A DNA stretch of 64,000 bases. Source: Candidatus Heimdallarchaeum aukensis. GTDB lineage: Archaea > Asgardarchaeota > Heimdallarchaeia > Heimdallarchaeales > Heimdallarchaeaceae. Positions within the stretch are counted from its first letter, which is position 1, and every line of letters begins with the position of its first letter. Below the pieces are notes generated by a model that did not search any database, was not told where the DNA came from, and saw only the letters and a program-made list of their open reading frames with translations. Shown piece after piece: positions 38,729 to 42,089 of the stretch. The stretch spans positions 2,368,001 to 2,432,000 of the forward strand of contig CP084166.1 in the NCBI GenBank assembly GCA_021513695.1, written 5' to 3'. The position numbers and the translations under genes are program-made.

Positions 38729-39550
38729 ATGAATGGAAAGAGAGGAAAAAACTTTCGTGTAGTTCCCTTTGAGAAAAATCGGAAAATTATTCTAGATTTA
38801 CTTGAGCAAGGAAAGAAAAGAAATCATGTGAAAGCTTTAGTTGAAGTTGATGTGACTGATGCTAGAGAGTTTTTTAAGAGATACAAAGAAATTAAAGGAG
38901 AAAAACTATCTTTTACTGCATGGATTATATATTGTGTAGCTAAAGCAATAGATGAGAATATAGAAGTAAATGCATATAGAAAGGGAAGAAGAAAAATAGT
39001 TATCTTTGACGAAGTTGATGTGGGAACAATTATTGAAAGAGAAATTGAAGGAAAAAAAATACCCAGAAAATACATAATCAGAGGAGCTAATAGAAAGAGT
39101 TTGATAGATATTCATAATGAAATAAGAGCTGTTCAAAGAAAAGAGATTAGTGGCCCCATACTAGGAAATAAAAAAGAAACAAAATTTGTTAACTTTTTTG
39201 CTTCATTACCTAAGTTTATCAGAAAAATTTTCTGGTGGTGGACAAAACAAAAGCCTGAATTCAGAAAGAAAATGTTAGGGACAATTACAGTTTCATCTGT
39301 TGGTATGTTTGGAAGAACAGGAGGTTGGGGGATAGTTATTTCTTCTGAAACTGTTCATGTTATGATTGGAGGGATTGCTAGAAAACCTGGAGTGGTAGGG
39401 GATGAAATCTCGATTAGAGAGTATTTAGATCTTACATTAATGGCTGACCATTCAATTATTGATGGAGGACCTATAGCCAGACTTCTTCAAAGACTCATTG
39501 ACTTGATAGAAAGCTCTTACGGCTTAGATGACAATCTACTAAAAACTTAA
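38729..39550 (+). CDS. 2-oxoacid dehydrogenase E2 acyltransferase catalytic-domain-only protein (CAT-like fold)
   Basis: C-terminal DHSIIDGGPIARLL resembles the E2 active-site DHRxxDG motif. N-terminal region like the E2 catalytic-domain start. No lipoyl domain. Confidence 0.5.
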   Translation: MNGKRGKNFRVVPFEKNRKIILDLLEQGKKRNHVKALVEVDVTDAREFFKRYKEIKGEKLSFTAWIIYCVAKAIDENIEVNAYRKGRRKIVIFDEVDVGTIIEREIEGKKIPRKYIIRGANRKSLIDIHNEIRAVQRKEISGPILGNKKETKFVNFFASLPKFIRKIFWWWTKQKPEFRKKMLGTITVSSVGMFGRTGGWGIVISSETVHVMIGGIARKPGVVGDEISIREYLDLTLMADHSIIDGGPIARLLQRLIDLIESSYGLDDNLLKT

Positions 39551-39576
39551 TAAAAAATGAGAAGAAGAGAAAAAAT

Positions 39577-40119
39577 TTACACTTTGTCTGTTATGTGGTC
39601 AACAATTCTGAAAAGCATAGCAAAAGGAGTTAAGGCTCCAAGAATGTAAACAAAGAAGTTAATAATTATAACCACTATTGGAACAGGAATGTATAGAGAT
39701 CCAATTGATAAACCGATCAGGATAACTAAGAATATGATAAATCCTAAAAGTATTTTTAAGGCTCCACCAAACGCACCAAAGAAACTAACCTTCTTAGAGA
39801 ATTTAGGTCCTCTTGTTGCAGTGAAAATAAAAGCTGCAAAACCACCGATCATTATGAACAAAAATCCTAAAATTATTAGTACAAAACCAATAATGCTTGC
39901 TACATTTCCGAAGAAAGCTGTTGGATCTAATAATACACTGAAGTCTCCTCCAATCAAAGCTAAAAGCGCTGTAAAGTCAAACAGGAAAAATCCTCCTACA
40001 ACTAACCCAAAACCAATTATGTTGTAAACTATTGATATTAGTATGTAGATGATTGCTCTTCCATACGATTCAAAAAAATTCGAGATTCCCGACTGTTCTT
40101 TATAAACCATTTTTTTCAC
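39577..40119 (-). CDS. Small polytopic membrane protein, hypothetical
   Basis: 180 aa with 4-5 hydrophobic helices (G/F/I rich). Confidence 0.4.
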   Translation of the reverse strand: MKKMVYKEQSGISNFFESYGRAIIYILISIVYNIIGFGLVVGGFFLFDFTALLALIGGDFSVLLDPTAFFGNVASIIGFVLIILGFLFIMIGGFAAFIFTATRGPKFSKKVSFFGAFGGALKILLGFIIFLVILIGLSIGSLYIPVPIVVIIINFFVYILGALTPFAMLFRIVDHITDKV

Positions 40120-40174
40120 CTAATATTTTATTTTTGTAAAGATTTAGTAGAAGAGACATATAAATCTTTGCTAT

Positions 40175-40183
40175 CTTGGAGGA
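40175..40183. repeat. Left copy of the 9 bp target-site duplication CTTGGAGGA
   Basis: Identical 9-mer directly abutting both IS ends. Confidence 0.7.
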
Positions 40184-40945
40184 GGTAGTGTCTAGTTTTC
40201 TTCCGACAAAATATTTGTGGGGACTCTAATAGTAAGATATGAAAACACAAAAACTATCTACTCTTTTTAAGAGATGCAGAGTCCCCAAAAAAATAATAAT
40301 AAAAGCTATTTATGAATATATTGGTTCAAAGAATGGTTTGAGGACAGTAGCATGGAAGAATGGTTTAACGCATCAAACATTATGGTATTGGGTAAAGAAG
40401 TTCAGGCTCTTTAGGGAAAGTTTACATAGAGTTGTAGCAGAGAGAGGGGGAATACCAGAGATTATAGTAGTAGATGAAACAGAGATTAGGACCTCTCAAG
40501 GCTCAATATATCTGTGGTTCGCGTTAGATCCTTACAACAAGACTTTACTGGGTTTTAGTATTACTAAAGGACGGAGTAATCTTGAATGTTTACTAACTTT
40601 CCGTTATTGGTTCAAATGTTGGGGTTTTAAGCCCCGTATTGTCGTTACAGATGCAGGAGTATGGTATCCTGTCTTACTTCGTCTCGGTATCAAAATCTCT
40701 GTTATCAAAGGTGGTTTACGCTCCTATATTGAACGTTTTAATGCTACTCTTAAGAGTTATCGTTGGTTTCATTCTATTCTCCACTGCACTTGTCCTATCC
40801 GTGCCGTCTATGGCTCTACTCATCTTTCTGGTTTCCTTACTCTCTTTATGCTCCATTATAATTTCGTTCGTCCTCATCAGAGCTTGGGACATCCTCCCCT
40901 TAGTTCCTTTTTACCTAGGAGGTGGTATAAAAACTAGACACTACC
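40184..40945 (+). mobile_element. Intact ~762 bp single-ORF insertion sequence (IS6/IS240-like DDE transposase) with 16 bp terminal inverted repeats and a 9 bp target-site duplication
   Basis: IR-L GGTAGTGTCTAGTTTT (~40184-40199). IR-R AAAACTAGACACTACC (~40930-40945). Flanking direct repeat CTTGGAGGA at ~40175-40183 and ~40946-40954. Internal GC higher than flanks. Confidence 0.8.
40239..40937 (+). CDS. DDE transposase (IS6/IS240-like, rve-type catalytic core)
   Basis: VVDETEI (D), VVTDAGVWY (D), SYIERFNATLK (E). C-terminal YNFVRPHQSLG integrase-core signature. Spacing resembles IS26 Tnp. Confidence 0.75.
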   Translation: MKTQKLSTLFKRCRVPKKIIIKAIYEYIGSKNGLRTVAWKNGLTHQTLWYWVKKFRLFRESLHRVVAERGGIPEIIVVDETEIRTSQGSIYLWFALDPYNKTLLGFSITKGRSNLECLLTFRYWFKCWGFKPRIVVTDAGVWYPVLLRLGIKISVIKGGLRSYIERFNATLKSYRWFHSILHCTCPIRAVYGSTHLSGFLTLFMLHYNFVRPHQSLGHPPLSSFLPRRWYKN

Positions 40946-40954
40946 CTTGGAGGA
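40946..40954. repeat. Right copy of the 9 bp target-site duplication CTTGGAGGA
   Basis: Identical 9-mer directly abutting both IS ends. Confidence 0.7.
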
Positions 40955-40970
40955 AGAAATATTGTACTGT

Positions 40971-41396
40971 CTAAAAAACAATTGGTGTAATGTAGAGTTT
41001 TCCTCCGATAACAGCTTTGAAGGAAAGAATGTTCTCGGAAAATTCTTTTATTTGCCTTGCTTTTCCTTTAAGAAAAATCGTTTCCAAACACAATTCGTGC
41101 GTAATATGGGCATGCATGGTTGATACAATTATTTCATCATTATCATGTTGTATTTGAGTTAACTTCTCGGAGCTATTAAAAGAATGGTGGTCGTATAAAT
41201 AAGTTAAACTTCCAACAACTTGAACATTAGGGTCAACGTTAAGTTCAGATTTGGCTAAATGTTCCCTTACTATAAATCTAATAGCTTCAGACCTGTTAGG
41301 GAATTTTTTTTCTTTTATCCATTCATCAAGCTTTGAAAGTAACTCTGGTTCGAAAGACACTCCTGTCCTAGTGACATAGGTCTTTTTTTCTTTCAT
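40971..41396 (-). CDS. nikR: Nickel-responsive transcriptional regulator NikR
   Basis: N-terminal ribbon-helix-helix (TRTGVSFEPELLSKLDEWI…NRSEAIRFIV). C-terminal Ni-binding domain with HDNDEI…VSTMHAHITHELCLETIFLKG, matching NikR His/Cys ligands. Confidence 0.85.
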   Translation of the reverse strand: MKEKKTYVTRTGVSFEPELLSKLDEWIKEKKFPNRSEAIRFIVREHLAKSELNVDPNVQVVGSLTYLYDHHSFNSSEKLTQIQHDNDEIIVSTMHAHITHELCLETIFLKGKARQIKEFSENILSFKAVIGGKLYITPIVF

Positions 41397-41687
41397 AATT
41401 TTCTAACAGCTTTTGAGATTAAAGAATATTTCCTTAAATGAACTTTATATTTAGTTGATTATAAGAGAATACCTTTAATAGAGAATAAAAGTCAATTTGT
41501 TTGCAATTTTATAAAGATGAGAGTGATACTTGTAATTAATTTTGCTTAATTTTATGAAAAATGAAAAGTTTAATTTTTTAACTGTTGTGTGTTTTAAACT
41601 TAATTTTTTTAATAGATAGTATTATTACTTACCATTACTAATTTGTTTTAGTTAAAATGTTTAATGAAAACTTAATCATAAAATCAA

Positions 41688-42089
41688 TTGGAGGATTATC
41701 AAATGGAGCCTGGTGAACACATGATGGATTGGTGGGGTATTCCTTTTATGGGTTATATGATGATTGGAGCAGCACTCGTGCTTGTATTAATTGCATTTCT
41801 GATATATTTAGATGCAGAAAAACGTGGAATGAATGGTTTATTATGGTTTTTCTTGGTTATTGTACCAATGATAAGCGTGGTATCTATTATAGTCTACCTC
41901 ATAATAAGAGTTGATTATCCTGTACAGCAACCAGTTAAAGAAAGCTTATTACACAAACCACAAGTTTATCAAGAAAGCCCAACATCAAAGATTACTGCTT
42001 TAGCAAAGCTTGATGAACGCTATGCTAATGGCGAAATAACTCGTGAAGAATACTATCAGATGAAAAGAGATATTGAGTTATCCCCATAA
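41688..42089 (+). CDS. SHOCT-domain membrane protein
   Basis: Two TM helices, then C-terminal LAKLDERYANGEITREEYYQMKRDI (SHOCT short C-terminal domain). Confidence 0.6.
   Translation: MEDYQMEPGEHMMDWWGIPFMGYMMIGAALVLVLIAFLIYLDAEKRGMNGLLWFFLVIVPMISVVSIIVYLIIRVDYPVQQPVKESLLHKPQVYQESPTSKITALAKLDERYANGEITREEYYQMKRDIELSP

Follow-up and report, generated by a model that had tools for sequence, protein, structure and literature searches.

Archaeal IS6-like elements (ISPfu1/2/5, ISC774, ISH14/15/29; clades a–d of Harmer and Hall, Ai–Aiv of Varani) are insertion sequences (ISs) tabulated with lengths of 696–853 bp, transposases of 211–237 aa and terminal inverted repeats (TIRs) of 12–18 bp (Harmer and Hall, 2019; PMC6807381). 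Their target-site duplications (TSDs) are mostly 8 bp long, ISfinder giving 9 bp for ISH15 and ISPfu5, and none of these archaeal elements had been studied experimentally (Harmer and Hall, 2019; PMC6807381). Here we describe an element of this kind, located at positions 40184–40945 of a 64,000-nt stretch of the chromosome of the Asgard archaeon Candidatus Heimdallarchaeum aukensis (GenBank assembly GCA_021513695.1, contig CP084166.1, positions 2,368,001–2,432,000 of the forward strand; hereafter the window, to which positions refer unless another contig is named). Compared by published description, the element resembled the archaeal IS6-like elements in its length, in its open reading frame (ORF) and TIR length, in the GG tip and the G at position 7 of its ends, in the helix-turn-helix (HTH), DDE triad and lysine seven residues after the E of its transposase, and in the 9-bp TSDs on record for some of them. 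It differed in that its transposase was 26–33% identical to the nearest IS240-type relatives and stayed below the hidden Markov model cut-offs, in that the TSDs of its family measured 9–10(–12) bp, with 8 bp in none of nine copies, and in carrying E-F----K--R and F---F motifs and having its close relatives confined to Heimdallarchaeaceae and metagenome contigs.

The bacterial IS6/IS26 elements (IS26, IS257, IS1216, IS6100) are likewise small single-ORF DDE elements with GG tips and TGT at positions 6–8 of their ends, an N-terminal H-HTH region and a stop codon near or within the right inverted repeat (IRR). IS26 differs from the window element in its strictly 8-bp TSD and in its E-helix motif, E-DH---K. 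Its D-to-E spacing is about 35 residues, as against 27 in the window transposase. On the evidence below, we consider, with a probability of about 0.85, that a divergent IS6-like element of the archaeal group has inserted here and that the insertion is genuine and simple.

Structure of the element and its insertion site

The element is a 762-bp unit bounded by perfect 16-bp TIRs and holding a single transposase gene (40239–40937, + strand), which encodes 232 aa without interruption and ends in a TAG stop within the IRR. The left inverted repeat (IRL, GGTAGTGTCTAGTTTT; 40184–40199, + strand) starts with GG and carries TGT at positions 6–8 as in IS6-type ends, and the IRR (AAAACTAGACACTACC; 40930–40945, − strand), in which AAACTAGACACTACC is preceded by A, is its exact reverse complement. 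The two repeats were complementary at 16/16 positions and recurred nowhere else in the window with up to 3 mismatches; IRL-type ends were also present on the copies in Candidatus H. endolithica. Both ends are abutted by the 9-mer CTTGGAGGA, at 40175–40183 next to the IRL and at 40946–40954 next to the IRR, the latter junction being the same in the independent assemblies L016 and L018. The whole window contained these two copies of the 9-mer, both flush with the inverted repeats, and the repeat could not be extended, the next bases being t and c on the left and g and a on the right, so that it does not belong to a longer local repeat. By an arithmetic estimate, the chance expectation for an exact 16-bp inverted pair with identical flanking 9-mers was ~3e-5 × 4e-6. 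The coordinates and sequences in an earlier note on this DNA, which had described a 762-bp unit with perfect 16-bp TIRs, one DDE transposase ORF and identical 9-mers on either side, proved exact, and its reservation that the repeats might have been miscounted or might form part of a longer local repeat was not borne out.

The pre-insertion state of the locus was found in a relative. A NikR search of metagenome contigs returned four loci, among them contig L017, in which positions 1–471 matched window positions 41424–40954 at 93.6% identity and positions 479–1633 matched 40176–39029 at 87.6% identity. In this contig nikR is followed directly by the membrane-protein gene that lies on the other side of the element in the window; the IS is absent and the 9-mer occurs once, in diverged form. 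Read on the nikR strand, the junction is ...TTTTTTACCACCGAGATAGCAAAG in L017 and ...ATTTCTT-CCTCCAAGATAGCAAAG in the window once the IS is removed. L017 is thus a true empty site in a relative that is ~88–94% identical, and the flanking 9-mers are a genuine target-site duplication; the comparison with relatives that the earlier note had suggested is hereby supplied. The metagenome contigs contained 0 exact matches to the empty site as reconstructed over 24 nt (TGCTATCTTGGAGGAAGAAATATT). L014 and L015 were considered as further empty sites and rejected, as they hold the membrane-gene orthologue in a different synteny.

As for the age of the insertion, the left or right junction in three further contigs (L013, L016, L018), which come from at least two other samples, was identical base for base to that in the window, and their flanks were 98.9–99.8% identical to the window (0.2–1.1% different). 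In addition, no sister copy encoding an identical protein was present in H. aukensis, the nearest differing at 2/232 residues. The insertion has become fixed in populations like H. aukensis but is missing from a relative about as divergent as a separate species. The earlier note had called the element freshly inserted; it is indeed younger than the split from the ~88–94% identical relative, but it is not brand new, and the occurrence of its junctions in three independent contigs with 0.2–1.1% flank divergence, together with the want of an identical sister copy, makes "recent" the more fitting word. Meanwhile, the IS portions of L016 and L018 were 95–97% identical to the window, as against 98.9–99.8% for the flanks, which could mean that copies of the IS were mixed during assembly or that gene conversion took place among them.

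Affiliation of the transposase

Among the curated models, the window protein scored best on NCBIfam IS6 (NF033587; 47.2 bits, cut-off 125), followed by IS3 (40 bits, cut-off 160), ISC774 (31.5 bits, cut-off 200), IS1 (25.9 bits, cut-off 100) and IS481 (25.5 bits, cut-off 224), while on the Pfam models it reached 24.8 bits for rve_3 (cut-off 26.5), 22.5 bits for rve (cut-off 32.6) and 14.4 bits for DDE_Tnp_IS240 (PF13610; cut-off 27). A profile built from the clade gave 240 matches at E ≤ 1e-3 among 1.84 billion representative proteins. Its distant full-length matches (26–33% identity) scored 78–137 bits on the IS6 model, two of them above the 125-bit cut-off; 12/16 aligned proteins matched DDE_Tnp_IS240, and PF13610 was found in almost all of 97 outgroup relatives. 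An hhalign comparison of the Heimdall clade with uncultured archaeal IS6/IS240-type relatives returned 100% probability and an E value of 4.9e-47 over 204 columns, extending from the HTH to the C-terminal YNxxRxH. An element of the outgroup (L024) measured 807 bp and had perfect 16-bp ends, GGTGCTGTTAAGATAA, sharing GGT..TGT with the ends of the window element.

With regard to the defining features of IS6, the length of 762 bp and the single 232-aa ORF lie within the pattern of 700–900 bp with one ORF; full-length homology, including the HTH, the DDE triad and a K/R seven residues after the E, is reached via the relatives; and the ends agree in part, GGTAGTGTCTAGTTTT having the GG tip, G7 and TGT at 6–8 but not the caaa motif that accompanies cTGTt in IS6 ends. 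As judged from these sequence relationships, the element falls within the archaeal IS6-like (IS240-type) group, on a divergent lineage that is restricted to the Heimdallarchaeaceae as far as the databases show. The resemblance to IS6/IS240 that the earlier note had remarked on is therefore real, resting on the top-scoring IS6 model, the IS240-type relatives and the hhalign result. The two features that the same note had held against IS6, the 9-bp TSD and the C-terminal YNFVRPHQSLG, do not carry that weight: ISH15 and ISPfu5 have 9 bp, and the rve-like C-terminal motif is a common feature of the IS240-type group because the relatives carry YNxxRxH.

In the transposase itself, an N-terminal HTH region precedes a DDE core of the RNase H fold, marked by D79, D138, E165 and K172. 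In the alignment with its relatives, W51, D79, D138, W142, E165, R166, K172, Y207, N208 and H213 were invariant. The AlphaFold2 model (mean pLDDT 60) showed N-terminal helices followed by b1-b2-b3-a1-b4-a2-b5-a, with moderate confidence confined to residues 11–160, and would place D79 on b1, D138 after b4 and E165 in the following helix. The best Foldseek matches in the PDB were retroviral integrase cores, ISCth4 and IstA, and a PDB sequence search with the family profile gave a marginal integrase match alone (E 0.5). The transposase ORF is under purifying selection, with a ratio of non-synonymous to synonymous substitution (dN/dS) of 0.06–0.18 in both halves between lineages ~76–78% identical in protein, and of 0.16–0.31 for the closer pair formed by the window copy and L005. 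The perfect ends and the selection on the ORF suggested that the element is probably still active.

Copies, exchange and target duplications

The window protein was identical to UJG40309.1 of H. aukensis, which has a circular genome of 3.08 Mb. As counted from the protein cluster, the same chromosome carried 7 other distinct 232-aa versions and two fragments, amounting to at least 8 intact copies, and further copies were found in H. endolithica and in Heimdallarchaeaceae metagenome-assembled genomes. A scan of species-representative genomes recovered 12 loci, all in H. endolithica, of which 6 were intact (L001–L006) and 6 frameshifted, truncated or rearranged. The element is multicopy in both species, which answers the question of genome-wide copy number raised in the earlier note. 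In these genomes, 11 families of transposases/integrases were counted, numbering as many as 27 copies, but individual ISs were not described (Wu et al., 2022; PMC8813620).

Within H. endolithica, L001 and L002 were 100% identical, and the window copy showed 98.4% nucleotide identity to L001–L003, whereas the genomes of the two species share 88% average nucleotide identity (PMC8813620). This disparity points to a recent exchange of the element within the genus Heimdallarchaeum. A foreign origin, which the earlier note had proposed from composition, was not upheld: close relatives were found in Heimdallarchaeaceae or on metagenome contigs only, old decayed copies reside in H. endolithica, and the atypical composition is conserved across the family. 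No relative was found among the viral contigs of IMG/VR.

TSDs were read for nine scored copies (the window copy, L001–L006, L011 and L021). They measured 9 bp in the window copy, L002, L003 and L005 (that of L003 also being readable as 10 bp), 10 bp in L001, L006, L011 and L021, and 11–12 bp in L004; an 8-bp TSD was seen in 0/9, and no target consensus was evident. A 9-bp duplication cannot by chance appear as a 10-bp repeat flush with both ends, so the variation in stagger is real. Decayed or rearranged copies (L007, L009, L010, L020) had no TSD. Three of these, L007, L009 and L010, were examined for signs of IS26-like pseudo-compound structures or intramolecular inversions, but their flanks did not match. 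IS26 is known for its cointegrates and pseudo-compound transposons, whereas the 12 H. endolithica loci showed no such arrays, the adjacent L009 and L010 lacking a shared outer TSD.

Several individual copies merit mention. The targets of L004 (2946–3707) and L005 (2946–3707), which lie ~14 kb apart in H. endolithica in inverted orientation, share ATTTGCAAT, oriented alike with respect to the IS; the 9-bp TSD of L005 is ATTTGCAAT itself, and the 11/12-bp TSD of L004 is (T/A)TTTGCAATAGT. The sharing may reflect a preferred target or be coincidental. The flanks of the two copies shared no repeat element beyond the 9-mer and were otherwise unrelated. L008 (2947–3732; CP084167.1, locus range 138965–145522) is a dead copy in which the interior (IS nt 169–706) is inverted relative to both termini, and a further fragment (IS nt 466–603) lies ~2.7 kb away. 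In the window, a 33-mer within the 3' end of nikR (40987–41019), 41 bp to the right of the IRR, is 25/33 (76%) identical in direct orientation to the IRL and its adjacent sequence; it is native coding sequence that also occurs in the empty-site contig L017. A comparable 16-mer resembling the IR lies 70 bp from the IRR of L011. We do not consider a targeting of IR-like sequences established; the enrichment is weak, 2/13 insertions having such a 16-mer (≤4 mismatches, within 120 bp) against a background of 2.5% (p ~0.04, post hoc).

Transposition mechanism and alternative placements

In the mechanism proposed here, the N-terminal HTH of the transposase would bind the GG-tipped 16-bp ends, and the RNase H-fold site formed by D79, D138 and E165 would expose the 3'-OH ends and join them to target phosphates staggered by 9–10 bp. 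Repair of the gaps would then yield the target duplication; at the present locus, the element did enter the spacer between nikR and the membrane-protein gene, with duplication of 9 bp. To judge from its bacterial IS6/IS26 homologues, the route may be a replicative cointegrate that would be resolved by homologous recombination, for example between chromosome copies, a pathway that we hold to be somewhat short of an even chance.

Several points weigh against reading the feature as an active IS6-like insertion. The window protein failed every curated cut-off of NCBIfam and Pfam. Its ends lack the caaa motif, and the TSDs of 9–10 bp (four of 9, four of 10 and one of 11–12) depart from the 8 bp that define IS6. 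The archaeal signature E--F---K-R reads E-F----K--R (E165-R-F-N-A-T-L-K172-S-Y-R), and the window protein has F-L-T-L-F (F---F) instead of the signature W---F; in the IS240-type relatives, ERWFxTLKxR was found in P0043, P0045, P0046 and P0053, and W---F was read in P0043 and P0042 only. The AlphaFold2 model drops below a pLDDT of 50 at residues 161–232, E165 included. Activity is suggested by the intactness of the element and the 100%-identical L001 and L002, and the cointegrate route by homology, the sequence fitting cut-and-paste or copy-out-paste-in equally well. Finally, Harmer and Hall (2019; PMC6807381) would remove the archaeal ISs from IS6/IS26 altogether.

That last proposal leads to the most serious alternative, namely that the Heimdall clade, possibly with other archaeal "IS6" elements, forms a separate IS family that has just the integrase-like DDE fold and the GG-tipped end in common with IS6/IS26 and may differ in its transposition chemistry. 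The failed IS6 thresholds and the 9–10(–12)-bp TSDs agree with it, as do the D-to-E spacing of 27 residues, an E-helix motif (ERFNATLK) that looks more like IS3/IS481, and the small number of profile matches (just 240 of 1.84 billion). Against this, Varani et al. (2021; PMC7986276) retain the archaeal clades in IS6 under ISfinder criteria, and an unbroken chain of homologues leads from the window protein to proteins that pass the IS6 model. Because Harmer and Hall argue that the archaeal elements stand outside IS6/IS26, the label is a matter of definition; the alternative concerns where the line is drawn, not what the element is, and we regard it as unlikely. Similarly doubtful to us is the bolder proposition that the element founds an IS lineage limited to Heimdallarchaeaceae and deserving a subfamily or family of its own, as its flexible 9–10(–12)-bp stagger, its recent interspecies exchange and two regulatory features not described for IS6-type elements (the start-codon stem and the codon switch described below) might be taken to indicate.

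The E-helix motif and the YNFVRPHQSLG terminus also brought an IS3/IS481-type (rve integrase) element into consideration, which would move by copy-out-paste-in via a circular intermediate. IS481 TSDs vary in length, and the window protein did register on the rve_3, rve, IS3 and IS481 models; these scores were, however, under their cut-offs and under the IS6 score, and relatives with the same C-terminal motifs are of IS240/IS6 type. Moreover, the ends are GG...CC rather than TG...CA or TGT...ACA, the 762-bp element has a single 232-aa ORF (family transposases exceed 280 aa) with no frameshift architecture, and the N-terminal region aligns to positions 1–139 of the IS6 model, all of which renders this placement very improbable. 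An IS1-family element, for which GGnnnTG ends, an 8–10-bp TSD and a length of ~770 bp are characteristic, would account for the GGTAGTG ends, the 9–10-bp TSD, the 762 bp and the weak IS1 match of 25.9 bits. That score is nonetheless about half of the IS6 score and far under the 100-bit cut-off, the relatives score much higher on the IS6 model, residues 1–70 contain no cysteine/histidine finger, and there is no InsA/InsB frameshift arrangement; in addition, GGnnnTG fits IS6 ends as well, so that neither the ends nor the TSD length are specific. We therefore regard the IS1 reading as extremely improbable, and both it and the IS3/IS481 assignment were rejected on scores, ends and architecture in favor of a divergent archaeal IS6-like element.

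Start-codon stem, codon switch and +1 frame

Upstream of the transposase gene, a candidate promoter was recognized from its sequence as the TATA-like box AAAATATTT (40208–40216, + strand), centered ~27 nt before the ATG; the CGACAAAAAtATT block was conserved in all variants. Between this box and the gene lies the 5' arm of a predicted stem (TGGGGACTCT; 40218–40227, + strand), which pairs with a 3' arm (AGAGTCCCCA; 40278–40287, + strand) inside codons 14–17 (R-V-P-K), so that a 10-bp stem closes a loop of ~50 nt holding the ATG. A single-sequence fold of the region was not exceptional (z = −1.3). The stem was kept in 11/11 variants with different sequences, covarying across 8 sequence versions; the arm pairs included CUCU/AGAG, UUCU/AGAA, CUUGCU/AGCAGG, UUCUGCUCUG/CGGAGCAGAA and CCCCGUU/AACAGGG; cognate arms paired at −20.2 kcal/mol versus −16.9 kcal/mol for non-cognate arms, with 0/20000 permutations as good, and where the 3' arm had changed from GTC to ATC (Val to Ile), the untranslated 5' arm had correspondingly changed from C to T. 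A search of Rfam over 39000–42000 returned no match. One subfamily (L022, 59–131; L023, 1404–1455) has an extra ~41 bp at the left end, between the IRL and the conserved CTTCCGACAAAA box.

The transposase mRNA may well be leaderless or nearly so, starting near the ATG and downstream of the 5' arm. Since such a native transcript would lack that arm, read-through transcripts alone could form the stem, and its likeliest role, though one that we put somewhat short of an even chance, would be to block their translation. Reportedly, fold-back inhibition of transposase translation was described for IS10 and IS50 by Davis, Simons and Kleckner in 1985 and by Schulz and Reznikoff in 1991. The window element is like IS10 and IS50 in that the stem would join sequence upstream of the presumed transcription start to the start-codon region, and differs in having its AUG in the loop and not in the stem, in its archaeal host and in its native mRNA being probably leaderless.

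The GC content of the IS was 38.1% versus 32.1% for the window, placing it in the top 4.6% of 762-bp windows, and the second half of the ORF reached 40.9% (top 1%). Codon adaptation to 39 host ORFs was 0.596 and 0.535 for the two ORF halves, compared with 0.699 ± 0.042 for host blocks, which puts figures on the earlier remark that GC is raised and codon usage atypical relative to the host. Within the ORF, third-position purines fell from 60% in codons 1–118 to 23% (with 54% T) in codons 119–232, the switch lying near 40590, and arginine was encoded by AGR at 8/8 positions in residues 12–84 and by CGN at 9/9 positions in residues 112–211. The switch was also present in L005, L020, L021 and L022, being kept in the last three despite near-saturated synonymous sites (pS 0.52–0.76), and was absent from the IS240-type outgroup. 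Its cause might be an antisense RNA over the 3' half, a translational slowing that favors action in cis, or a mutational asymmetry.

A coding explanation for the pyrimidine-rich codons was weighed as well, in which the second half would encode an overlapping +1-frame protein or a programmed frameshift product. A hydrophobic 111-aa ORF (40639–40974, + strand) indeed runs in the +1 frame through the IRR into the flank; this frame is stop-free from codon 119 through the IRR in the window copy, L004, L005, L020 and L022, and two database proteins (P0011, P0016) are frameshifted products continuing in it. Yet the main-frame synonymous sites of the second half are near saturation (pS 0.52–0.70), every such change being non-synonymous in the +1 frame, L021 has 3 stops, and shuffling of synonymous codons within the half left the +1 frame stop-free in 3–35% of trials. 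The open frame is thus a by-product of codon bias (shuffle P 0.03–0.35); we consider a +1-frame product very unlikely, and the overlapping gene at 40639–40974 was rejected on the divergence, the L021 stops and the codon shuffles.

Neighboring genes

The element sits in a spacer of ~89 nt between nikR and the membrane-protein gene and interrupts neither host ORF. The upstream neighbor, nikR (40971–41396, − strand), is intact, with its stop codon 25 nt from the IRR and within a run of seven T, and its product scored 129.9 bits on NCBIfam NikR (cut-off 105) and 7.6e-27 on Pfam NikR_C. The downstream neighbor (39577–40110, − strand), also intact, encodes a multi-pass membrane protein of 177 aa that matched no Pfam or NCBIfam family and whose homologues formed two clusters only among 5.8 billion proteins, both Heimdallarchaeaceae or metagenomic. 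Read from a GTG, its ORF spans 39577–40119 (− strand). Translation more probably begins at the ATG at 40110, because GGTGA precedes it and the homologues start there. The distance of ~65 bp between the IS and the membrane-gene start given in the earlier note holds for the GTG, which is 64 nt from the IS, but not for the likelier ATG, at 73 nt.

Whether the insertion affected transcription was judged from the conserved sequence around it. A box resembling a TFB-recognition element (BRE) and TATA (GCAAAGATTTATAT on the − strand; 40158–40171) lies intact between the IS and the membrane-protein gene, where it would serve as a promoter. Directly downstream of the insertion point, the block GATAGCAAAGATTTATATGTCTC (− strand) is identical in the window and L017, while the sequence just upstream has diverged; the block ends 47 nt upstream of the membrane ATG, and the GGTGA box immediately before that ATG, a putative ribosome-binding site, is conserved in L017 too. 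The adjacency of nikR and the membrane gene is kept in L017 and not in L014/L015, and in L014, a more distant relative, the membrane gene occurs without nikR upstream. The retention of the BRE/TATA-like block and of GGTGA, together with the L014 arrangement, suggested that the membrane gene is probably transcribed from a promoter of its own that the insertion left untouched. That the IS split a nikR–membrane gene co-transcript, although possible, is not indicated and looks unlikely. The insertion is an ordinary one, consisting of an intact IS with no evident consequence for the adjoining genes.

Significance

These findings leave the general understanding of ISs unchanged; their import concerns this family and its hosts. 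In the database the gene is labeled "hypothetical protein / DDE domain-containing protein", and because none of the curated IS models catches it, automated surveys of Asgard mobile elements will miss or misfile the family. Now that its ends and TSD length are defined, its copies counted and its empty site verified, the element can serve as a marker for strain variation and for gene flow between Heimdallarchaeum species. The archaeal IS6-like group has as yet no element that serves as an experimental model; this one, being compact, with perfect TIRs and an undamaged gene, would be a sensible choice for study in vitro, and the codon switch and the start-codon stem offer small leads on how archaeal ISs may restrain their transposase.

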